DNA of 64,000 nucleotides from an uncultured Candidatus Saccharibacteria bacterium (GCA_964423445.1 CAYREQ010000003.1:821-64820); one strand, 5' to 3'. Positions 19,593 through 52,362 are shown, counted from the first letter of the stretch. A program made the numbers and translations. The notes: generated by a model from the letters alone, not told the origin.

Positions 19593-20744
19593 ATGCAACA
19601 AACTAGAAAAATAATATATTTCGCCGGTTTTCTTTTTTCTCTTTCTCTGGCATTGATGATATATACAAACTCTAGCTTCCTATCTTCTTTTATGAACAAG
19701 GAGCTAGTGGGGCTGACTTTTGCTCTGGGTTCAATCTTTTCAATATTGGCCCTCATAATAGCACCAAATATATTTAGGAAAATAGGTGGACATAAATTTT
19801 TACTTCTAGTAATAGCCCTAGATGCACTATCCATACTATTGTGCACCTTAACAGATCATCCGTGGGTAGTGTCTATCGCATTTATATTTGGTTTTGCATT
19901 AAACACCTTGATAGTCTTTTCTCTGGATGAGCTTTTAAAGATATTTTCAAAAGATTCTGCCATAGGTAGTGTACGAGGTGCGTACCTAGCTATCTGCCAT
20001 ATAGCTTTTATACTGTCTCAATTGATATCTGGTACAATCTTGGAGTATTTTTCTTTTAAAGAGATTTACGGTGTAGCTTTTTTTGTAATGGTTTTATTTT
20101 TTATTTTTGCCTTTTTCGCTCTCAGGGAAACTCCTGACCCAAAATATGATGATTTGAAAGTTTTGCAATATTTGAAAAAGTTTTTCACAAATAAAAACTT
20201 ATTTCGGGCATATGGTATAAATTTTTTACTTCAATTCTTTTACTGCTGGATGGTGATATACACACCAATTTACTTATATAATTACGTACATTTTTCTTGG
20301 GAAGAAATAGGTATTATTTTTTCTGTCATGTTACTACCTTTTATCTTGGTCCCCTTCCATGTCGGCAGATATGGAGACAAGGTGGGCGAAAGACTGATGC
20401 TGATGTCTGGTTTTACCATTATTGCACTTGCTACAATTTCAATATTCTTTATAAACGATCACAAAGTCTGGCTATGGGCTTTGATATTATTTGCTACCAG
20501 AGTCGGAGCTGCCACTATCGAAGTCATGAGTGATGCTTATTTCTTTAAACATATAAAACCTGAAAATGAAGAATATGTAGGTATTTTTCGTAGCATTACA
20601 CCGTTATCCTATATAATTGGTCCTGTCGCTGCTTCAGCATTTTTCCTATTTTTACCTCAGTTTAATTTTATCTATGTAATACTAGGCACTATAATGCTAT
20701 TTGGAATTTATCTTTCTTCTACTATAGACAGAAAAGATATTTAG
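19593..20744 (+). CDS. MFS transporter
   Basis: About 12 TM helices and 383 aa, with an MFS-like GRYGDK loop. Confidence 0.6.
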   Translation: MQQTRKIIYFAGFLFSLSLALMIYTNSSFLSSFMNKELVGLTFALGSIFSILALIIAPNIFRKIGGHKFLLLVIALDALSILLCTLTDHPWVVSIAFIFGFALNTLIVFSLDELLKIFSKDSAIGSVRGAYLAICHIAFILSQLISGTILEYFSFKEIYGVAFFVMVLFFIFAFFALRETPDPKYDDLKVLQYLKKFFTNKNLFRAYGINFLLQFFYCWMVIYTPIYLYNYVHFSWEEIGIIFSVMLLPFILVPFHVGRYGDKVGERLMLMSGFTIIALATISIFFINDHKVWLWALILFATRVGAATIEVMSDAYFFKHIKPENEEYVGIFRSITPLSYIIGPVAASAFFLFLPQFNFIYVILGTIMLFGIYLSSTIDRKDI

Positions 20745-21190
20745 TTTTTCTTAAGTAAACTATTTTTATAAATTTTTTCTTTATAAGGTTTTAAGCGGAC
20801 TATTTTTACCAATAGTCCACGTTCTTTCAAATCCTTCTTGAGATTTTTTACATAAGCTTTTTGATCATAACCAAGAGCAATAATATCTGGTCGCTCTTTT
20901 AGGATATGCGGTATATGATTTTCTACGCCCGAGAGTACTACCCTATCGGCTAAAATACATTCTTTGAGTAGGCCCATCCTTTCTTTTTCATTTAATTTTG
21001 GATATTGTCCTTTTATTCTAAAAACATTTTTGTCGCGAGCTATTGATACCACTAGAAAAGAATTTTTTGCTAATCTTCGGGCTTGTTTAAACAAATTTAA
21101 ATGCCCCTCATGTAGACCGTCAAAGGTGCCAAAAACCATTATTTTATGCTTTTTTTCTATATTATTCTTTTCCACAATGTGTTTTGACAT
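20741..21190 (-). CDS. nucleotidyltransferase (archaeal RibL-like FAD synthetase / cytidylyltransferase family)
   Basis: Has the GTFDGLHEGH (HxGH) motif; the 149-aa architecture resembles RibL/TagD-type nucleotidyltransferases. Confidence 0.55.
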   Translation of the reverse strand: MSKHIVEKNNIEKKHKIMVFGTFDGLHEGHLNLFKQARRLAKNSFLVVSIARDKNVFRIKGQYPKLNEKERMGLLKECILADRVVLSGVENHIPHILKERPDIIALGYDQKAYVKNLKKDLKERGLLVKIVRLKPYKEKIYKNSLLKKN

Positions 21191-21235
21191 AACTTGAAGT
21201 AAGTATATACTAAGTAGGTTCCTTTTAAAAATTAA

Positions 21236-21415
21236 AGATTTGATTGGGGAAACTGGTTAGAATCCAGTACAGTGCCGCTACGGTATGTCCCGATTTGCTA
21301 AATGGCGAATCGAGGAACAAGTCCGAATACCAATCATTTTGTTATTTTATTAGTCCCGAGCAGGAAACCTTCTTTTTAAAAGAAGCTTCAATTCTGCACG
21401 AGCAGAATTTTTTTA
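21236..21415 (+). ncRNA. cobalamin (B12) riboswitch with terminator expression platform
   Basis: GGGGAAACTGGTTAGAATCCAGTACAGTGCCGCTACGGT matches the conserved GGGAA..GGTnnnAATCC....CnGnnCCGCnACnGT core (B12-box-like GCCGCTACGG). It is followed by the ttctgcacgagcagaa hairpin and a T7 run directly before the ATG at 21419. Confidence 0.6.
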
Positions 21416-21418
21416 TTT

Positions 21419-21907
21419 ATGCCCAAAAAACAAAAAATTACAACGATACTGACTGTCATAGCAATTATATTATTTTTGGCTGGTTCTTATTCTTTCTTAT
21501 CAAAAAAAACTGTAAATAATATATCTTCAATAATAGGAGAAACAATAGAAACTGAGAAAGAAAATCCTGAAAAACTAATAAACAATGATAGTAAAAATTT
21601 AGTAACCCAAAAAACTACTCAGGCTTACCTAGAAATAGAAAATGTGCGATACACGAGTAACATCGCACAAAATACCAGTGTCTACGACTTTATGAATAAA
21701 ATGAGAGTTGAGAAAAAAATAAACTTTAAAGACAAGACTTATACTGGCATGGGTAAATTTATCTATGAGATAAATGACGTAAAAAATATCGGAAGTAAAA
21801 ATTGGATTTATTATGTAAATGGCGAAAAAGCACAGGTGGGAGTTTCAGATTATAAAATAAATCCGAGCGATGTCGTGTCTTGGAAATTTGAAGATAATAT
21901 AAATTAA
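21419..21907 (+). CDS. DUF4430 domain protein (transcobalamin-like beta-domain, putative B12-binding), membrane-anchored
   Basis: The C-terminal NWIYYVNGEKAQVGVSDYKINPSDVVSWKFED matches the DUF4430 signature, and an N-terminal TM helix is present. It lies directly downstream of the B12 riboswitch. Confidence 0.55.
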   Translation: MPKKQKITTILTVIAIILFLAGSYSFLSKKTVNNISSIIGETIETEKENPEKLINNDSKNLVTQKTTQAYLEIENVRYTSNIAQNTSVYDFMNKMRVEKKINFKDKTYTGMGKFIYEINDVKNIGSKNWIYYVNGEKAQVGVSDYKINPSDVVSWKFEDNIN

Positions 21908-21922
21908 AAGTTAATTAAACAT

Positions 21923-23689
21923 ATGAAAAAAATAATAGAAATCTTTTTTGTTTTGACAATATTACTAAGTGCGACAGATTACACTTTTGCTACAGCTCCG
22001 AGTGCAACACTGACCATACGAGACAGTGGTAATATAATATTTACAGGCAATGTATCTATAGGAGAAGACAGCAACGTACTCTCCCTTTTAAATAATGCTG
22101 ATACAGAAAGCGATGATTTTGAAATTTCTAATATCCAAGAATTTTCTTTTGGGAAATATCTAAAATGTATAACTTATATAAATGGTGAGAGGTGTGATGA
22201 CTGGCAATATGTAGTAAATAATACTTCACCATTTTCTAGCATAGACCAGACTACTTTATCTGGCGGAGAAAATGTCTATGTATATTTTGGACCTCAAAAT
22301 AAAATAATTCTAGGCTCAAGTTCTATCACTACAAATGATGCAGTGACCCTGACAGCCCAAAACTATGATTATGAAAACGATACTTGGGTAGCTAGGACGA
22401 GTGGAACAGTGGGCCTCACTCAGCCAAACCCCTCAGACCCATGGAATCCGACTGAAGTATTGACAGCCCCTCTCGATGGCATAGGTCAAGCTACATTCAC
22501 CAAAGTCCCTGTCGGATCTTATAATGTCGGTATCAAAGAAGACTACTATTTCCCTACTGAGCCACTCACCGTGACAGCTTATGTACCATCAAATACCAGT
22601 GGTGGTGGAAGCAACATAGCAAATACTACAGGATTAGTCCTCGGAGCGACTACTAAAATACAATTTGATGTTGATAAAGCTTTCAAATTCTTGGCTTCAC
22701 AACAAAAAGAAAATGGTTCATGGGGAGACGAAATGTACACAGATTGGGCGAGCTTGGCATTACCAACAAGCAAACAAATGGAGCAAGTTATAAAATTAAT
22801 CAAATACCAAAGTGGCATTAAAACATCTGGTGTTTTACTGACTGATTATGAGAGGCATGCTATGGCCCTCTTGGCTCTCGGACTAAATCCATATAATACA
22901 AATGATGAAAATTACATAAAAAAAATCACAGATACTTTTGATGGAAAACAATTTGGAAGTATTGATGAAGATAATGATGACATCTTTGCACTTTTAGTCT
23001 TACAAAATGCTGGTTTTAAAAATGACGAAAAAATGATACTAGATAGTGTAGATTTTGTACTAAGTAGACAAAAAGAAAATGGTTCATGGGATGAAAGTAT
23101 AGATATGACTGGGGCAAGTATCCAAGCTCTTAAACTTTTCGATGAAAATGAAAAAGTGAAAACAGCTCTAGAAAAAGCAAAAGAATTTTTGAAGAAAAAT
23201 CAAAAGACAGATGGAGGTTTTGGAAATGTATCTTCTACTTCTTGGGCTATGGGAGGAATAGTAGCATTGAAAGAAAAAATAGAAGATTGGAAAAAAGAAG
23301 ATTTTGAAAATGAAGGTGTATTTTATAACCCTTTTGATTATCTAGCAAAAAACCAAGACATAGATGGAGGAATAAAAAATTCTATCAAAGAAGAAGAGTC
23401 TAGCTTGAAAAATAAAATCTGGGAGACAGCTTATGCTACAGTGGCAATGTCTGGTAAGACTTGGGGTGAAATAATGCAGAAATTTGAAAAACCAAAAGAT
23501 TTTACTATAGCCTCAAACTTCTCTGATAACACAGTAAAAATAGGTGCGACAGTGGCTCCTAAAAAAGTAAAACCAAAGACAGAGGCACCTGTTATACCTG
23601 TCTTAAACATTACAAATACAGAAAATACCCCTCAAATTCAGACAGAAAACAAAAATTGGTTTATGAAATTTATAAACTTTATTTTTTAA
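21923..23689 (+). CDS. secreted DUF4430-like domain fused to alpha/alpha-toroid (prenyltransferase/squalene-cyclase-like) repeat domain
   Basis: Has a signal peptide. The N-terminal region WQYVVNN...SGGENVYVYFG is DUF4430-like. Repeated QKENGSWGDE / QKENGSWDES / QKTDGGFGN / NQDIDGGI motifs are typical of alpha/alpha-toroid repeats. Confidence 0.5.
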   Translation: MKKIIEIFFVLTILLSATDYTFATAPSATLTIRDSGNIIFTGNVSIGEDSNVLSLLNNADTESDDFEISNIQEFSFGKYLKCITYINGERCDDWQYVVNNTSPFSSIDQTTLSGGENVYVYFGPQNKIILGSSSITTNDAVTLTAQNYDYENDTWVARTSGTVGLTQPNPSDPWNPTEVLTAPLDGIGQATFTKVPVGSYNVGIKEDYYFPTEPLTVTAYVPSNTSGGGSNIANTTGLVLGATTKIQFDVDKAFKFLASQQKENGSWGDEMYTDWASLALPTSKQMEQVIKLIKYQSGIKTSGVLLTDYERHAMALLALGLNPYNTNDENYIKKITDTFDGKQFGSIDEDNDDIFALLVLQNAGFKNDEKMILDSVDFVLSRQKENGSWDESIDMTGASIQALKLFDENEKVKTALEKAKEFLKKNQKTDGGFGNVSSTSWAMGGIVALKEKIEDWKKEDFENEGVFYNPFDYLAKNQDIDGGIKNSIKEEESSLKNKIWETAYATVAMSGKTWGEIMQKFEKPKDFTIASNFSDNTVKIGATVAPKKVKPKTEAPVIPVLNITNTENTPQIQTENKNWFMKFINFIF

Positions 23690-29040: not shown

Positions 29041-30783
29041 TTAAACTCTCTCACCTATTTGCTGTCTCCACATAGCAGAATATAGTCCTTGTTTTTTGAG
29101 TAGTTCGTCGTGTGAGCCTGATTCTATGATTGAACCTTTTTCAAGTACATATATAGTATCTGCATGCATAATAGTAGAAAGTCTATGGGCTATGAGTATC
29201 GTAATTCTAGAGCCGATAGTAGACACATCTCTTATAGTCTTAGTGATTTCTTCTTCGGTCAGAGAGTCGAGCGCACTCGTAGCTTCGTCAAAAATTAAAA
29301 TATTTGGCAAGCGGAGCAACGCCCGAGCGATAGATAGACGCTGGCGTTCTCCCCCAGAGACTTTTACTCCACCCTCACCTATCAAAGTATCAAGTCCTTT
29401 GCCTCCACGAGAAAGTAAATTTTGGCATTGAGCATCATCTAATGCTTTTAAACATTCTTCGTCTGTAGCGTCAGGTTTTACGAAAATCAAATTTTCACGA
29501 ATAGTTCCCGCAAAAAGCTGAGTATCTTGGGTAACAAAGCCTATCTGCCTCCTTAAATCTTCTTTGTTCATAGATTCAAAAGCTGTGTCATTGTAATGTA
29601 TTTCACCTTTTGTCGGCAAATATAGACCTACGAGCAACTTGACCAAAGACGTCTTACCAGAGCCAGATGGACCTACGAAAGCAACTGTTTTCCCTTGTGA
29701 GACATCATAAGAAATATCGGAGAGTGCTTCTTCGTTTCCAGATTTATATTTAAAGGATACATTTTTGAAAGATAATTTTTTTATAACTCCAATATCTTTT
29801 GGATTTTGGACAGTAGCTTCTTTGGGTGTCTCAATAAGTTTCTGAAAATTAGTGAGCGATGCTTCGGCTTCCCTATATATACCTATTACATTGCCTAATT
29901 CTTGGAGAGGATTAAAAATAAAGAACGAATACACAAACAAAGAGAAGAATTCACCAAAAGTAATAACATGGGTAAATATCAAATACAATAAAAAGAAGAG
30001 CAAGCTAGTACGAACAAAGTTTATGACTGTACCTTGTATAAAAGATAACGAACGCAAATAACGAAGTTTTTTTAATTCTAAATTTAATATTTTTTCAGTC
30101 GTAGTATTTAATCTACCTATTTCTTGATTGGCGAGGCCGAGTGATTTTACTAATTCAATATTACGCAATGATTCGGTAGTAGAACCAGCCAAAGCTGTAG
30201 TCTCAGATACGATGACCATCTGAATATTTTTAATTTTCTTTGAAAGAATCATGCTCATACCAGCGATAATCGGAATAGTACCAAAAAGTACAAGGGCTAT
30301 GACCCAATAAATACTGGTAGCGTATATAGCTACAAAAATAAATCCTATCAAAGACACGAAAAGTACATTTACGACAGATGCTATCAATCTCTCTGTGTCT
30401 CCCCTCACTTTCTGTAATTTACCCAGAGTCTCTCCACTTCGCTCATCTTCAAAGACACTATATGGCAAAGACAAAGCGTGAGATACACCATCTCTATATA
30501 AATCTGCACCTACTCTCTGACTGATGCCGTTTAAAAAATAATCTTGAAAATTTTTCGCAGTACGAGAAATAAAAGCTGTGCCGACTATAGCAAGGAGTAA
30601 TAATCCGACACCATAAAAAAACTCTGTCTTAGTGTACAAATCAGGCTTCATGGCATACGTATCTATGACATGTTTAAAAATATATGGGTCTAGTAAAGAA
30701 AAAATTTGATTGATACTAGCCAACACCAAAGTCAAAACACAAAGCTTCCAGTATTTTTTTAAATAACGGTAAAAAATTTTCAT
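29041..30783 (-). CDS. ABC transporter, fused permease/ATP-binding exporter (MsbA-like)
   Basis: Six-TM N-terminal domain, then Walker A GPSGSGKTS, signature LSGGERQR and Walker B ILIFDEATSALD. Confidence 0.8.
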   Translation of the reverse strand: MKIFYRYLKKYWKLCVLTLVLASINQIFSLLDPYIFKHVIDTYAMKPDLYTKTEFFYGVGLLLLAIVGTAFISRTAKNFQDYFLNGISQRVGADLYRDGVSHALSLPYSVFEDERSGETLGKLQKVRGDTERLIASVVNVLFVSLIGFIFVAIYATSIYWVIALVLFGTIPIIAGMSMILSKKIKNIQMVIVSETTALAGSTTESLRNIELVKSLGLANQEIGRLNTTTEKILNLELKKLRYLRSLSFIQGTVINFVRTSLLFFLLYLIFTHVITFGEFFSLFVYSFFIFNPLQELGNVIGIYREAEASLTNFQKLIETPKEATVQNPKDIGVIKKLSFKNVSFKYKSGNEEALSDISYDVSQGKTVAFVGPSGSGKTSLVKLLVGLYLPTKGEIHYNDTAFESMNKEDLRRQIGFVTQDTQLFAGTIRENLIFVKPDATDEECLKALDDAQCQNLLSRGGKGLDTLIGEGGVKVSGGERQRLSIARALLRLPNILIFDEATSALDSLTEEEITKTIRDVSTIGSRITILIAHRLSTIMHADTIYVLEKGSIIESGSHDELLKKQGLYSAMWRQQIGERV

Positions 30784-43219: not shown

Positions 43220-43786
43220 TTATTTATAGTCTGGAATGATTTCTTCGTGGCCACCGACTCTACTAGAGATACGAGCAAGTGCGTAGAGTAAGCTAGATAG
43301 TCTATTTAAATATTGCAAAGTGTTAGGTAAAACTTCTGTTTTTCCTTCTTCTTTTACTGCCACCACTCTCCTCTCAGCTCGGCGTGCGAGTGTACGAGCA
43401 AAATCAAACATACCACCGAGCTCTGTCGCACCAGAAATGAAAAAACTATTTATTTTAGGCAAAACTCTCTCTATGCTATCTGTTATACTTTCAATCTTTT
43501 TTATTTTATCGTCTGTGATATTTTTATCAGCACCAGCTACCTGTGCTTGAATGATAAAAAGATTTTGCTGAACTTCTAAGACCACGTCTGCATATTGCAT
43601 ACGATGATTTTCGGGGTCGTCACGTTCAAAGCCCTGAGCTGCGGCCTTGGCACGAACAAAACCCAAAAAAGAATTCACTTCATCTAGTGTGCCGAGTGCT
43701 TCAGCTACGAGAGAGCTCTTTGATACTCTCTGGTCGCAACCAAATGTCTTTGTGGTGCCGTCATCTCCTTTTCTTGTATACAACAT
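43220..43786 (-). CDS. ATP:cob(I)alamin adenosyltransferase, PduO-type
   Basis: Starting at the internal Met, the product is MLYTRKGDDGTTKTFGCDQRVSKSSLVAEALGTLDEVNSFLG. This matches the PduO/MMAB N-terminal signature (IYTKTGDKGETSL...EAYGTxDELN). The ORF-track start at 43819 would overlap the nrdJ stop. Confidence 0.75.
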   Translation of the reverse strand: MLYTRKGDDGTTKTFGCDQRVSKSSLVAEALGTLDEVNSFLGFVRAKAAAQGFERDDPENHRMQYADVVLEVQQNLFIIQAQVAGADKNITDDKIKKIESITDSIERVLPKINSFFISGATELGGMFDFARTLARRAERRVVAVKEEGKTEVLPNTLQYLNRLSSLLYALARISSRVGGHEEIIPDYK

Positions 43787-43791
43787 AATTT

Positions 43792-46098
43792 TTATATTTC
43801 GCAGACGCCAGAGACACAAGCAAATTCTTTTGCACCTACTGTATTGTCTACACTTTCGTATTGAGAAAGTTTTGAGAAATCAATTTTACCTATAGCTTTT
43901 GAACGCTTTTCGTATTCTTCTTTTGTTATCTCTTCATATGGAGCGAGCTGATATACGTGTTCAGAGCGAGGAAGAAATGATAGTCCACCAATCCAATCCC
44001 AGTTTTCATAAACAAAGTTTCCTACTGCTATCCATTCATCTGGTCCTACATATATAGTCGCTGAAGGATTGTGTTCTACAAAGTGTTCTTTTAGTCTCTT
44101 CCACTCTTTCATCAATTCTAGGGCTGATACTTCATCTTTGAATATTGCACCCTTTGGAGCTTTTACTGGGAACTCTAGGACAAAAGTAGTAGCTGTAGAT
44201 TCTGCTTGTCCTACTTCTGGAAGACAAGGCACTCCTTGATCGCGAGCCATTTGCAATAGTGTATCTGTGTGTGAAATACGAACTCGGCGAATAAAGTATG
44301 GGGCATACCATGGGTGCATACCTGAACCCACACCTAGGAGCTGTCCAGAATTTCCATGAGGCTTTACACAAGTAATAGCAGTAGATTGATTGATACCAAA
44401 ACGCTTTGCATATTTTTTATTTACTTCTACAGAAGCAGCTTTTAGCATATCCAATACTTTATCTTCACGAATGATTGGATTGTCATAATATCCTGTGAGT
44501 GATACTCCGAGCAATCTCTCAGCATCACAATTTTCTTTCCACTTCTTTGAAAGGTAACCAAAATTTGTAAGAGTAGATTGATATGTTCCGAGCAATGTAG
44601 CTAATTCTATTTTTCTCTTTAGACTTTCCTTTGTGTCGTTTGGGCGGATAACGATACTAGTCAAATTACAAAATTGTTTTGATCGTAGATAAATTTCTCC
44701 ACAAGGATTTAATCCTATTTGTCTCTCATCTTTTATCGCTTCCCATCTACGTGCTGGGACTTGTTTCTCTAGTCCTGCTCGGTTGAAAATTCCACGCTCT
44801 CCTGATTTTGATTTTACCAATGCTGTCCATTCATCTAGGAATTCTTCTGCTCCTGGCTTTGCATTGTATACTGCAGAATTGTTTGCCATCGCACGTTGAC
44901 CTTCGGTCAAATAAAATTGTCCTTTCTTTGCATCTCGCATTTCTGTATCTTCAAGCTCTGATAGAGAGATAAGTGCACTGCGTCGTACTCCCCCAGCTAC
45001 AACTATCAAACCAATCTGACAGATAAGATCGTGCATATCTATGTTTGAAAGTCGGCGTCCTTGTTTAGATAAAATTTTTCTCTTAGCAAACTCCATCAAA
45101 TCCATAAGTGGTTGTGGGCCTGAAGCTTTTCCTCCTGCTGTCTCTAGGCGTGCTCCTGCTGGACGAATCATGCTGTAATCAAACTTCATATCTTTTCCAT
45201 CAAACCAAGCATCCAGTCCTTTTACAAAAGCATCTGCCCAACCTTCCTTACTATCTATTACTACATGAGTAGGCACTGTACCTTTTGTCTGCTTTTTTAT
45301 TTGTGGAAACTTTTGAACATTTTCCCACTCCACAGCAAAGCCAAGACCAGCTCCACACATAGATACATACATTATTTCTCCTAGGTCTTGAGTACATGTA
45401 GGTGCTATATATGAACAATTGTAAGCCCAGACATTAGACTGACGACAAGCTTTGCCTGCAGACCATAAAAGTCTCATAGAAGGGCAAATATCTTGATTTA
45501 AGATAGCTTCTCGTACTTCAGAGTACTCTTTGGCTGTGAGTTTATCTCCTAGGTTTTCCTTCATATAATCCATGTATCGGTTTATGGTCTCTATCCATGT
45601 CTCACGGCGACCAAGCTCAGGAATCCATCTAGAATAAAATTGATAGAAAATATATTCTGAGTAAGGACTAGAAAAATATTTACTAGATTCTTCTACAGCT
45701 AGACGCACAGCCTCTGGCACTGGACCAAATTCTGCTCGTAGTTCTGATCTTTTGTTTCGGTAAAGAATATATTTCTTTGCTGTATCAGTAAAACCAGTCT
45801 TCATCAATTCTTTTTCCACCAAGTCTTGGACTATTTCTACAGTAGGTAAGAATTTTGCTCCTTTATTTTTTTTCACCAATTCAGATTGCAAATCAAGAAG
45901 GCTGTAAAAAACACTCTTGGCTACTTTATATGCTTCATTTTCTCCACCTTCGTTTGTAACTTCAAAAGCTTTATTTACAGCGTCCGCTATTATATCCAAA
46001 TCAAAATTCATCACTTCCCCACTTCTCTTGCGTATTGATTTTATTTTCTTTAGTTCGTTCTTGGAAATTTTTTCTACTGCCTTTGTTTTTGTTTTCAT
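43792..46098 (-). CDS. nrdJ: ribonucleotide reductase, class II (adenosylcobalamin-dependent, NrdJ-like) with N-terminal ATP-cone
   Basis: Has an ATP-cone (KRSGEVMNFDLDII), a radical-loop NPCGEI motif (class II-like, versus NLCxEI in class I) and a C-terminal Cys pair CVSGVC. No nrdB is present, and a PduO-type adenosyltransferase sits immediately downstream. Confidence 0.65.
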   Translation of the reverse strand: MKTKTKAVEKISKNELKKIKSIRKRSGEVMNFDLDIIADAVNKAFEVTNEGGENEAYKVAKSVFYSLLDLQSELVKKNKGAKFLPTVEIVQDLVEKELMKTGFTDTAKKYILYRNKRSELRAEFGPVPEAVRLAVEESSKYFSSPYSEYIFYQFYSRWIPELGRRETWIETINRYMDYMKENLGDKLTAKEYSEVREAILNQDICPSMRLLWSAGKACRQSNVWAYNCSYIAPTCTQDLGEIMYVSMCGAGLGFAVEWENVQKFPQIKKQTKGTVPTHVVIDSKEGWADAFVKGLDAWFDGKDMKFDYSMIRPAGARLETAGGKASGPQPLMDLMEFAKRKILSKQGRRLSNIDMHDLICQIGLIVVAGGVRRSALISLSELEDTEMRDAKKGQFYLTEGQRAMANNSAVYNAKPGAEEFLDEWTALVKSKSGERGIFNRAGLEKQVPARRWEAIKDERQIGLNPCGEIYLRSKQFCNLTSIVIRPNDTKESLKRKIELATLLGTYQSTLTNFGYLSKKWKENCDAERLLGVSLTGYYDNPIIREDKVLDMLKAASVEVNKKYAKRFGINQSTAITCVKPHGNSGQLLGVGSGMHPWYAPYFIRRVRISHTDTLLQMARDQGVPCLPEVGQAESTATTFVLEFPVKAPKGAIFKDEVSALELMKEWKRLKEHFVEHNPSATIYVGPDEWIAVGNFVYENWDWIGGLSFLPRSEHVYQLAPYEEITKEEYEKRSKAIGKIDFSKLSQYESVDNTVGAKEFACVSGVCEI

Positions 46099-46102
46099 AT
46101 AT

Positions 46103-46654
46103 TTAAATTATTTTTGGGTTAAGATTTTTAATAAGTGAGGGTTCTTCTTTTCTTTTTCTTTTCTTAATTAAAAACTTATATATGGCGGGAGATAAGACCA
46201 TGGCAAAAGTAATGTTTCCTAAGAGATGTAAAATCGTAAACGGTATTTGTCCGACTAGTGTACTAGTGAATGATTGATTGAAAAATATCGGACCGACAGT
46301 AAGTCCAGTAGCTATATCAAAAAATAAAGTGCCGAACACAGCGAAACGTACAAAATTCCATACATTTGCTTCTCTTTTCTTAAAATATAGTGCAGAAAAT
46401 AATCCTAATACTCCGTAAGCTCCTAAAGTAAAGAATGTCTGGATACCAATTGTGTTTGTAAGTAAGTCATAAAGAAAAATGCTGAGAACAGCAAAAGAAA
46501 TACTCATAAACATTCCAAACTTTTTACTAAATGGCATCATTGTCGCCAAAATCGGTTCCACATTTGGAGCACGTAGTGGAATAAGTCGCACCAATAAACA
46601 CACAAAAAGGCCGACGAAATATTTGAAGTAATTATTTTTTAGCGTAGCTTCCAT
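46103..46654 (-). CDS. small polytopic membrane protein (about six TM), possible vitamin-transporter substrate-binding (S) component-like
   Basis: 183 aa and highly hydrophobic, immediately upstream of nrdJ in the same orientation. The ECF-S/BtuM-like assignment is an inference from size, topology and context only. Confidence 0.3.
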   Translation of the reverse strand: MEATLKNNYFKYFVGLFVCLLVRLIPLRAPNVEPILATMMPFSKKFGMFMSISFAVLSIFLYDLLTNTIGIQTFFTLGAYGVLGLFSALYFKKREANVWNFVRFAVFGTLFFDIATGLTVGPIFFNQSFTSTLVGQIPFTILHLLGNITFAMVLSPAIYKFLIKKRKRKEEPSLIKNLNPKII

Positions 46655-46803
46655 GGATAACTATTATACACGAAAGTTCGCCCAAAAAATGTGGATAACC
46701 CTCTTTTTTTAGAGAAATTTTACAGAACAAAACACAGAAAAATAGTTGTCAAAAAAAACGACGGTAAAGCCATATATAATCGTTTATTTTTTTATTGAAA
46801 TTG

Positions 46804-46877
46804 TCCGTCCTCTTGGATTCGAACCAAGGACCCCAGAGGTATAAGCTCTGTGCTCTAACCAACTGAGCTAAGGACGG
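46804..46877 (-). tRNA. tRNA-Ile (anticodon TAT)
   Basis: Reverse complement is CCGTCCT-TA-GCTC-AGTTGGTTA-GAGC-A-CAGAG-CTTATAC-CTCTG-GGGTC-CTTGG-TTCGAAT-CCAAG-AGGACGG-A. Anticodon loop positions 34-36 are TAT. Confidence 0.7.
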
Positions 46878-51869: not shown

Positions 51870-52266
51870 GGGGATGCAAGGCATAGACAGTAGGCCTATT
51901 TGTATTGATGCATACCGAGTATGTACGTAATCTCGTAAAAATTCGTACAAATGTTAATTGCAAAATTGACTTCTAAAGTAAAAGCTTCAGCTTCTCCATA
52001 CTTCGGTATGAAGGACTTTGCTTTTGCTCCAGCTTTCGCGTAAGCCAAGCTGGTGTCTATCTTATAGACTTCCGATATATAAGAATAGGCAAAATATTAT
52101 CGGGATAAGGCGTTATCCGCTCGAATATACGCACTAAAACACAGAGCTAGATTAAGGGATATTTGGCGCACTTAAGAATTCTTTAATTTAAACAAAAAAG
52201 TGTGCTAAGTATGTAGATTTCAATATAATAACCTTCTGCACGGGGATTCAATTTCCCCCATCTCCA
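51870..52266 (+). ncRNA. ssrA: tmRNA (SsrA)
   Basis: The 5' GGGGATG pairs with the 3' CATCTCC-A (discriminator). The T-arm is GGGGA-TTCAATT-TCCCC. The internal reading frame GCA AAA TTG ... GCT TTT GCT CCA GCT TTC GCG TAA (tag ending ...FAFAPAFA*) is preceded by a CTCGTAAAAATTCGTACAAATG context resembling E. coli PK1. It lies directly downstream of smpB. Confidence 0.65.
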
Positions 52267-52362
52267 CAGATTTCATAAAAAACCTCTTTTGGTTGACTTT
52301 TAAACCTAAATAAGCTATATTTTAACTAGTTTCAGGTACTTAGCCTGCTACATTTATACCAA

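Follow-up and report, generated by a model that had tools for sequence, protein, structure and literature searches.

Organisation of a proposed B12 operon in Patescibacteria

The window analysed here, a stretch of 64,000 nucleotides from an uncultured Candidatus Saccharibacteria bacterium (GCA_964423445.1, CAYREQ010000003.1:821-64820), carries on its minus strand three closely packed genes for a small membrane protein, a ribonucleotide reductase (RNR) and an adenosyltransferase. We propose that they form a conserved transcription unit of Paceibacteria (Patescibacteria, or candidate phyla radiation, CPR) that imports vitamin B12, activates it and uses it for deoxyribonucleotide synthesis, a reading to which we give a probability of about 0.75. 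The parts are all of known kinds: a class II RNR, a PduO-type adenosyltransferase, an S-component of the energy-coupling factor (ECF) transporters and a cobalamin riboswitch. What is new, and well supported, is the assignment of an uncharacterised S-component family to B12 and the constant position of its gene within the RNR operon in one clade of the CPR. The operon and its upstream region contain the following features (positions counted from the first letter of the window).

46803..46877, minus strand: tRNA-Ile, anticodon UAU (ARAGORN and Rfam), upstream boundary of the operon
46690..46698, minus strand: DnaA-box-like 9-mer TTATCCACA, 28 nt upstream of the extended -10 element and the only exact match in the window
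46663..46670, minus strand: extended -10 element TGTATAAT, with 8 nt from TATAAT to the ATG of the membrane-protein gene
46103..46654, minus strand: 183-aa membrane protein, first gene of the operon (open reading frame, ORF)
43792..46098, minus strand: 768-aa NrdJ, assigned to the class II RNRs of monomeric RTPR type (ORF and domain profiles)
45742..46038, minus strand: N-terminal ATP-cone of NrdJ, about residues 21-119 (PF03477)
43220..43786, minus strand: 188-aa PduO-type ATP:cob(I)alamin adenosyltransferase, by family assignment (ORF from ATG and profiles)

The minus-strand order and the coordinates of the three genes had been given in a preliminary description of this DNA, and ORFs at these positions agree with it base for base; the profile matches are strong and do not point to chance ORFs. 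As read from the sequence, the stop codon of the membrane-protein gene is separated by 4 nt from the ATG of the RNR gene. The latter ends TGC GAA ATA TAA and is followed by the five nucleotides AAATT and by ATG TTG TAT ACA AGA AAA GGA GAT GAC GGC ACC ACA, so that the adenosyltransferase does start 5 nt past the RNR stop, as had been noted, and its N-terminus translates as MLYTRKGDDGTT. This last ORF is extendable to a TTG at 43819; the ATG was taken as its start, and the Pfam and TIGR profiles begin at residue 2-3 of the protein so defined. Upstream, a T-run lies after the tRNA-Ile gene and before the operon promoter, and on the downstream side a convergent recG-like gene ends 12 nt from the pduO stop. 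The sequence has a G+C content of 35-39%, and the closest relatives of all three genes belong to Patescibacteria metagenome-assembled genomes labelled Paceibacterota or Nomurabacteria. The records that hold operons of this Paceibacteria type (TPA_asm; L001, L006, L016, L022, L079 and others in our numbering of related loci) are often titled "uncultured Candidatus Saccharibacteria", and one "Gammaproteobacteria"; these labels are probably loose.

The reductase and the adenosyltransferase

The best curated model for the RNR, by far, was TIGR02505 (adenosylcobalamin-dependent ribonucleoside-triphosphate reductase, RTPR; E=4.9e-86), matched with 289 bits and thus below its trusted cut-off of 340. 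The protein also matched PF02867 and, above the cut-off (31.9 bits against 27), the RNR-II insertion domain PF21995. Its closest solved relative was the monomeric RTPR of Lactobacillus leichmannii (1L1L; E=3.4e-45, residues 151-766 aligned), and in this alignment NPCGEI falls on the catalytic-cysteine loop of RTPR and the C-terminal CVSGVC (CxxxxC) on its redox cysteine pair. NPCxE or NPCGE is the predominant finger-loop motif of class II enzymes, as against NLCxE in class I and MGCR or MCCR in class III, and the long loop-1 insertion of monomeric class II RNRs mimics the dimer interface (PMC9669993). Neither nrdB nor nrdG was found beside the RNR gene, whose neighbours at this locus are pduO downstream and the S-component gene upstream. 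The profile match, the relationship to 1L1L, the NPCGE loop and the lack of an adjacent nrdB all bear out the class II assignment made in the preliminary description, and the class I identity that it had named as the contrary outcome was not what we found. Judged on sequence, the enzyme can be placed securely, at family level, in class II, and it most resembles the monomeric RTPR type.

The N-terminal ATP-cone matched PF03477 over its full length (2-88 of 88; E=3.2e-16) and the ATP-cone of 5OLK (E=2e-12), and this region was covered in 78/78 NrdJ homologs of the related loci L001-L078. ATP-cones usually act via oligomerisation, and here one has been kept on a presumably monomeric RTPR-type class II RNR, both in the window and in all 78 homologs. 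About 11% of class II RNRs have an ATP-cone, the role of which is described as cryptic or unclear in these enzymes (PMC9669993).

The product of the downstream gene exceeded both curated cut-offs, that of PF01923 (E=3.6e-43, 148 bits, cut-off 24) and that of TIGR00636 PduO_Nterm (128.2 bits, cut-off 108.45). Moreover, its N-terminal MLYTRKGDDGTT fits (T/K)xGDxGxT, which is the N-terminal nucleotide-binding motif of PduO-type enzymes. The earlier claim of a PduO-type enzyme thus holds, and at family level the gene can be taken with security as that of a bona fide PduO-type adenosyltransferase. From their family membership, both enzymes would be expected to be active and the reductase to use adenosylcobalamin.

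The membrane protein is related to CbrT

The 183-aa protein is a member of a compact family with strong conservation, and its relatives numbered 859 in a database clustered at 90%. The 120 listed were 61-75% identical to it; among these, the taxon names attached were all of the Patescibacteria group and most relatives carried no name at all. At E<=0.001, only 265 cluster representatives (50% identity) were found among 1.84 billion proteins. Members of the family are annotated as "hypothetical" or DUF6580-like, and no mention of DUF6580 was found in the literature searched. Relatives matched the S-component families of Pfam (PF12822, PF07155 or PF20221) with E down to 5e-13. An AlphaFold2 model of the protein (pLDDT 76.7) showed six helical segments, and its top Foldseek matches were all ECF S-components (YkoE, 4HUQ_S, RibU and ThiT; probability 0.97-0.99, TM-score 0.52-0.59), which supports an S-component fold for the protein.

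Profile comparisons pointed to one S-component in particular. A narrow profile built from 35 close relatives (A1) had 6FNP_A (CbrT) as its sole match in the PDB (E=0.005), and a broad one built from 73 diverse representatives (A2) matched the same chain near full length with E=2.7e-13 and 53 bits, the next S-component being at 0.014 and no other match being significant among 177,635 PDB sequences. In hhalign, the family and CbrT aligned with 97.3% probability (E=2.4e-11). The similarity is not merely hydrophobic: polar motifs are common to both (loop-1 R-x6-PNV(E/Q)P, G-I-W-T, A-Y and H-x-x-G-N), and the 182-aa chain of 6FNP itself matches an S-component Pfam family. The 6FNP structure is that of ECF-CbrT, the vitamin B12 transporter of Lactobacillus delbrueckii (PMC5997447). 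These comparisons indicate that the membrane protein is distantly but specifically homologous to CbrT, and we propose it as a corrinoid (B12) uptake component, with both substrate and mode of transport as predictions.

Several residues are near-invariant in the family and absent from CbrT, namely D63, D113-x-x-T-G (D113..T116-G) and G-Q-I-P-F-T (Q136..T140). If the six helices are arranged according to the positive-inside rule, they would lie in the outer half, where S-components bind their substrate. Of all Cys and His residues, His143 alone is found throughout the family, and CbrT has it too; that it might serve as a cobalt ligand is speculation.

Gene order in close relatives and in a divergent branch

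The best 80 genome loci were examined for synteny among close relatives. The membrane-protein gene stood directly before nrdJ in 78/80 of these Patescibacteria loci, and pduO followed nrdJ in 67 of the 78, 10 of the other 11 being cut by a contig end or having an incomplete nrdJ. The order membrane-protein gene, nrdJ, pduO was kept at NrdJ identities of 56-92%, and also where the flanking ftsH and recG genes were lost or different. The neighbours of the two loci without nrdJ (L079 and L080) were inspected and were uninformative.

To see past common descent, we turned to a divergent branch of the family, which has the loop-1 motif PNNDPIMG and 27-42% identity to the window protein over tblastn segments. 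For this branch 68 metagenome loci were retrieved, 52 of them with analysable neighbours; their G+C content spans 29-68%, which places them in several lineages. At least one B12-linked neighbour was present in 27/52 loci, as follows.

DUF4430 lipoprotein, immediately downstream (+1): 12 loci (PF14478, E=5e-12)
class-B (B12-binding) radical S-adenosylmethionine (SAM) protein: 5-6 loci (Radical_SAM plus B12-binding domain; NCBIfam B12-rSAM families)
QueG/reductive-dehalogenase (RDH)-like Fe-S protein: 7 loci (TIGR00276, E=9e-18, partial match)
dimeric-type, intein-bearing class II RNR: 4 loci (PF08471, E=2e-34)
PduO: 1 locus (tblastn)
toroid-like protein: 1 locus, and a second (L105) by tblastn only

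The common denominator of these neighbours is the use or binding of B12. The QueG/RDH-like protein (Fer4_16) precedes the family member in L107, L108, L115, L120, L124, L125 and L136, all with 63-68% G+C. The dimeric-type RNR gene lies 2-3 genes from the family member in L101 (7710-12344, plus strand), L092, L093 and L121, and the enzyme of L101 has a LAGLIDADG intein as well as a TSCPD domain at its C-terminus.

Alternative readings of the membrane protein

Several observations weigh against B12 import by this protein. Taken alone, the 183-aa sequence reached no Pfam or NCBIfam cut-off, its best match being PF12822 with 14.8 bits against 30.7 (E=0.03); B12 binding and transport are predictions for every member of the family, and the synteny of the 80 loci reflects in part common descent. 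B12 transporter genes are typically repressed by a riboswitch, and a check for one upstream of 46654 had been suggested in the preliminary description. None was found there in the window, either at the gathering threshold or with the limit relaxed to E<=1, the region being occupied by the tRNA-Ile gene and the promoter, nor was any found upstream of the membrane-protein gene in 21 scanned close-relative loci or anywhere in 20 scanned divergent loci, and a riboswitch before this gene was accordingly rejected for the window and the close relatives. Finally, energy coupling is a difficulty: an ECF module was seen neither in the window nor with any consistency within 10 kb in the relatives, and B12 uptake in E. 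coli is supported by the full ECF-CbrT complex but not by CbrT alone (PMC5997447).

Alternatively, the protein might be an S-component for another substrate (riboflavin, a queuosine precursor, a nucleoside, cobalt or a lower-ligand base), and its gene would then just happen to lie in one operon with nrdJ and pduO. The lack of riboswitch control upstream of its gene would fit such a role, as would the RibU-type family PF07155, which was matched by 19/35 and 19/73 of the relatives, about as often as DUF6580. The QueG-like neighbours of 7 divergent loci would be as compatible with a queuosine precursor as substrate in that sublineage as with B12 supply for the neighbouring enzyme, and the specificity of an S-component is not readable from its fold. 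However, the PF07155 match is not specific, because CbrT itself weakly matches that family, and the solved RibU, ThiT, BioY, FolT and PanT were left unmatched by the profile that found CbrT. Furthermore, the neighbours in two divergent lineages are united by B12 (two NrdJ types, PduO, DUF4430, B12-radical-SAM and QueG/RDH proteins). We therefore consider another substrate unlikely.

The idea favoured in the preliminary description was a solitary B12 uptake component of BtuM- or ECF-S-like kind. As a member of the BtuM family, the protein would be a solitary B12 transporter and decyanase with cobalt ligated by a cysteine. BtuM and the window protein do have in common a small six-helix S-component fold and the lack of a nearby ECF module, and the position of pduO two genes downstream recalls the co-localisation of BtuM with btuR (PMC6072759). 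Nevertheless, the BtuM entries in the PDB were matched by neither family profile, even at E<=10, and BtuM ranked only 41st by Foldseek (probability 0.25, TM-score 0.49). Loop 3, where BtuM has its ligand Cys80, reads TNTIG in the window protein and has no conserved Cys or His. The sole cysteine, C19, lies in the first transmembrane helix (TM1) and is conserved among close relatives only, not in the wider family, and it was rejected as a cobalt ligand for these reasons. Membership of the BtuM family, rejected on sequence, fold rank and loop 3, is thus highly improbable. What stands of the earlier idea is the ECF-S fold with its homology to CbrT; the conserved Cys/His ligand that was to be looked for is missing, and the matches obtained were to S-components and CbrT, not to the unrelated transporter family that had been envisaged as the contrary case.

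If the protein is a transporter, it could still be a conventional group-II S-component that depends on an EcfAA'T module from another part of the genome. It would then belong to an ordinary ECF-CbrT system with an S gene that by chance lies in the RNR operon, a variant of our main reading in which energy coupling alone is at issue. As a rule, genes for group-II S-components lie apart from those of the ECF module, and the Joint Genome Institute (JGI) names some members of the family ECF substrate-specific component. The AxxxA motif of TM1 is what docks group-II S-components to EcfT, and the corresponding ALLTA of CbrT aligns to variable bulky residues in the window family. An ECF-type ATPase pair was absent from the 64-kb window and did not recur within 10 kb across 148 loci. 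A scan for ATP-binding cassette (ABC) ATPase motifs gave only a single ABC-like ORF in the window, a fused one of 580 aa (29041-30783), and six others scattered over 1.1 Mb of flanking sequence. Homology to CbrT, which needs the module (PMC5997447), speaks for module dependence; against it, the pairing with an adenosyltransferase resembles the system of BtuM, which is module-free and whose gene adjoins that of an adenosyltransferase; metabolic trapping of the vitamin has been suggested as the role of this enzyme (PMC6072759). The absent ECF pair and the unconserved AxxxA are hints that lean towards module independence, and we put the chances of a module-dependent transporter at somewhat below even.

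A conserved promoter with a DnaA-box-like site

A promoter just upstream of 46654 places the membrane-protein gene as the first gene of the RNR transcription unit. This promoter was missed by a simple sigma-70 consensus scan, because it has no match to the -35 element, and was found by aligning the upstream regions. The alignment showed a conserved GGTTATCCAC(A/T), a spacer and then TCGTGTATAAT. The extended -10 element TGTATAAT was conserved in 58/81 upstream regions, and a -10-like hexamer TA[TA]AAT started 13-15 nt before the ATG in 33/81. As TATAAT stands a mere 8 nt before the ATG in the window, a near-leaderless mRNA is predicted, its start being deduced from the promoter position.

The 8-mer TTATCCAC was found upstream of the membrane-protein gene in 56/81 regions (69/81 when one-base variants were allowed) and stood 28-33 nt from TGTATAAT in 49/81. 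Of its 91 occurrences in the 1.14 Mb of loci, 56 are at this promoter site. The TTATCCACA of the window is a 9/9 match to the DnaA-box consensus; since 0.66 such matches are expected in the window by chance, this single match is not significant in itself and the evidence for a DnaA-box-like site is its conservation. TTATCCACA is the consensus of DnaA boxes, and DnaA regulates nrdAB of E. coli and has been proposed to regulate the RNR genes of B. subtilis and Caulobacter (PMC8203912). The conserved site suggests that DnaA, if it binds there, may control the RNR operon in CPR bacteria.

In about 10 relatives (L003, L004, L005, L013, L015, L016, L021, L023, L037 and L038), and also in L029, L032, L042 and L043, the same promoter lies about 95 nt before the ATG. 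The long leaders of these relatives contain a conserved hairpin of the GTTGC...GCAAC type and a TTAGTATTATA element, for which no Rfam match was found in the scanned L032, L042 and L043.

A proposed riboswitch-controlled capture module

At a distance of 22 kb from the operon, the window carries two further genes behind a cobalamin riboswitch.

21199..21352, plus strand: cobalamin riboswitch, the only one in the window and outside the operon (RF00174, 42.5 bits, gathering score 31.5)
21419-21907, plus strand: DUF4430 protein (PF14478, E=5e-11)
21923-23689, plus strand: 588-aa alpha/alpha-toroid protein (SQHop_cyclase_C, E=9e-10; weak match to Cobalamin_bind PF01122, E=1.4e-4, below cut-off)

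In 12 related loci the DUF4430 and toroid genes stand directly downstream of pduO. Between pduO and the DUF4430 gene, a cobalamin riboswitch was found in 10/11 of the loci scanned, with scores that reached the gathering threshold in 8 and fell short of it in two, and in a further locus, L077, one came just after pduO. Given that riboswitches were found downstream of pduO in these relatives and none before the membrane-protein gene, the riboswitch would control the capture genes only, and in the five-gene layout it appears positioned as an internal attenuator. DUF4430 is the C-terminal domain of transcobalamins (PMC4350170). We propose that the DUF4430 and toroid proteins are an extracellular B12-capture pair in which transcobalamin-like domains are split over two genes, with B12 binding as a prediction. 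The sequence of capture, uptake, adenosylation and use that had been outlined in the preliminary description is therefore supported, the riboswitch-controlled pair being contiguous with the operon in the 12 relatives.

A comparison of the window with L032, L062-L064, L066, L070-L072, L077, L050 and L059 showed that the class of riboswitch before the DUF4430 gene varies: the window has RF00174, eight relatives have AdoCbl-II (RF01689), and L077, L059 and L050 have AdoCbl (RF01482). The type of riboswitch thus appears to have been swapped before the same genes. In the window, a cytidylyltransferase/FAD-synthetase-like gene (20741-21190, minus strand) lies immediately before the riboswitch and faces away from it, and it is adjoined by a gene for a major facilitator superfamily (MFS) transporter (19593-20744, plus strand).

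Proposed model and significance

In the model that we propose, the promoter with its extended -10 element and DnaA-box-like site would drive a near-leaderless mRNA of the three packed genes. The six-helix S-component would bind a corrinoid at an outward-facing pocket and move it by the "toppling" of S-components, while docked to an ECF module from another locus or else by itself. The PduO-type enzyme would convert cob(I)alamin and ATP into adenosylcobalamin, by which the vitamin would also be trapped inside the cell. The RTPR-type RNR would use this cofactor to generate a thiyl radical on the cysteine of NPCGEI and reduce ribonucleotides, its active site being re-reduced by the C-terminal CxxxxC. 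The separate capture module of DUF4430 and toroid proteins, contiguous in some relatives and distant here, would be repressed by the cobalamin riboswitch. With a probable importer, a B12-dependent RNR and a B12 activator in one operon, DNA synthesis probably depends on scavenged B12.

A more specific version can be put forward tentatively, and we think it rather unlikely to hold in all its parts. The CbrT-like protein would act without an ECF module, as a solitary facilitator driven by adenosylation trapping and fed by the split transcobalamin-like pair outside the cell. In an ancestral five-gene layout, the riboswitch would be an internal attenuator that allows capture only when B12 is scarce, and the importer, RNR and adenosyltransferase would stay on under DnaA. 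If this were true, the locus would be a self-contained minimal cassette from B12 acquisition to use, and DNA precursor synthesis in a large CPR clade would strictly depend on the B12 of others.

The genomes of Patescibacteria are tiny and these bacteria rely on other organisms, but the metabolites that tie them to their partners are poorly defined. The locus predicts a need for exogenous B12 for deoxyribonucleotides in a large Paceibacteria clade and names a candidate importer from an uncharacterised family, and the same evidence ties DUF4430 and toroid proteins to B12 capture. It would gain in interest if the transporter turned out to be independent of ECF modules and the DUF4430-toroid pair to be a bacterial counterpart of transcobalamin. 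In the literature searched, no relevant link of cobalamin, RNR, adenosyltransferase or ECF transporters to the CPR or Patescibacteria was found, nor any description of the B12 assignment of this family and its place in the RNR operon.

Other features of the neighbourhood

The tRNA-Ile directly upstream of the operon is an unusual isoacceptor. Most bacteria decode AUA with a lysidine-modified CAU tRNA, and a tRNA-Ile with anticodon UAU may bear on AUA decoding in this lineage. At a few kb from ftsH, the window has a tmRNA gene (51870-52269, plus strand), and so do L036, L050 and L062. The neighbourhood of ftsH, tRNA, operon and recG, with the nearby tmRNA, seems to be a conserved genomic block of the clade.

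Comparison with known systems

The RNR of the window resembles the RTPR of L. leichmannii (1L1L) in its loop-1 insertion domain, its NPCGE catalytic loop and its C-terminal cysteine pair. In contrast to RTPR, it has an extra N-terminal ATP-cone, residue 31 of the 1L1L chain, at which the alignment begins, corresponding to residue 151 of the query.

The membrane protein and CbrT (6FNP) are alike in the S-component fold, predicted for the former, in length (183 and 182 aa), in homology over about 150 residues and in the loop-1 PNV(Q/E)P. Their identity is only about 20%, however, and D63, D113..T116-G and G-Q136-I-P-F-T140 of the window family have no counterpart in CbrT. Nor does the window family have a conserved AxxxA in TM1, an associated riboswitch or a neighbouring ECF module, and its gene leads an RNR operon. 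The original prediction of CbrT reportedly rested on the cobalamin-riboswitch control of its gene.

BtuR is a CobA-type adenosyltransferase and belongs to a different family from PduO. Like BtuM-BtuR of Thiobacillus denitrificans (6FFV/8C7P; PMC6072759), the window locus combines a small S-component-like protein with an adenosyltransferase and would follow the same trapping logic with no ECF module nearby. It differs from that system in having no detectable sequence homology to BtuM and no cysteine ligand in loop 3, in the PduO type of its adenosyltransferase and in including the B12-dependent enzyme itself within the operon.

With the nrdAB promoter of E. coli, finally, the window has in common that a sequence with the DnaA-box consensus, TTATCCACA, directly precedes the promoter of an RNR operon (PMC8203912), but here there is a single putative box, the genes are those of a class II and not a class I RNR, and the lineage is that of the CPR.

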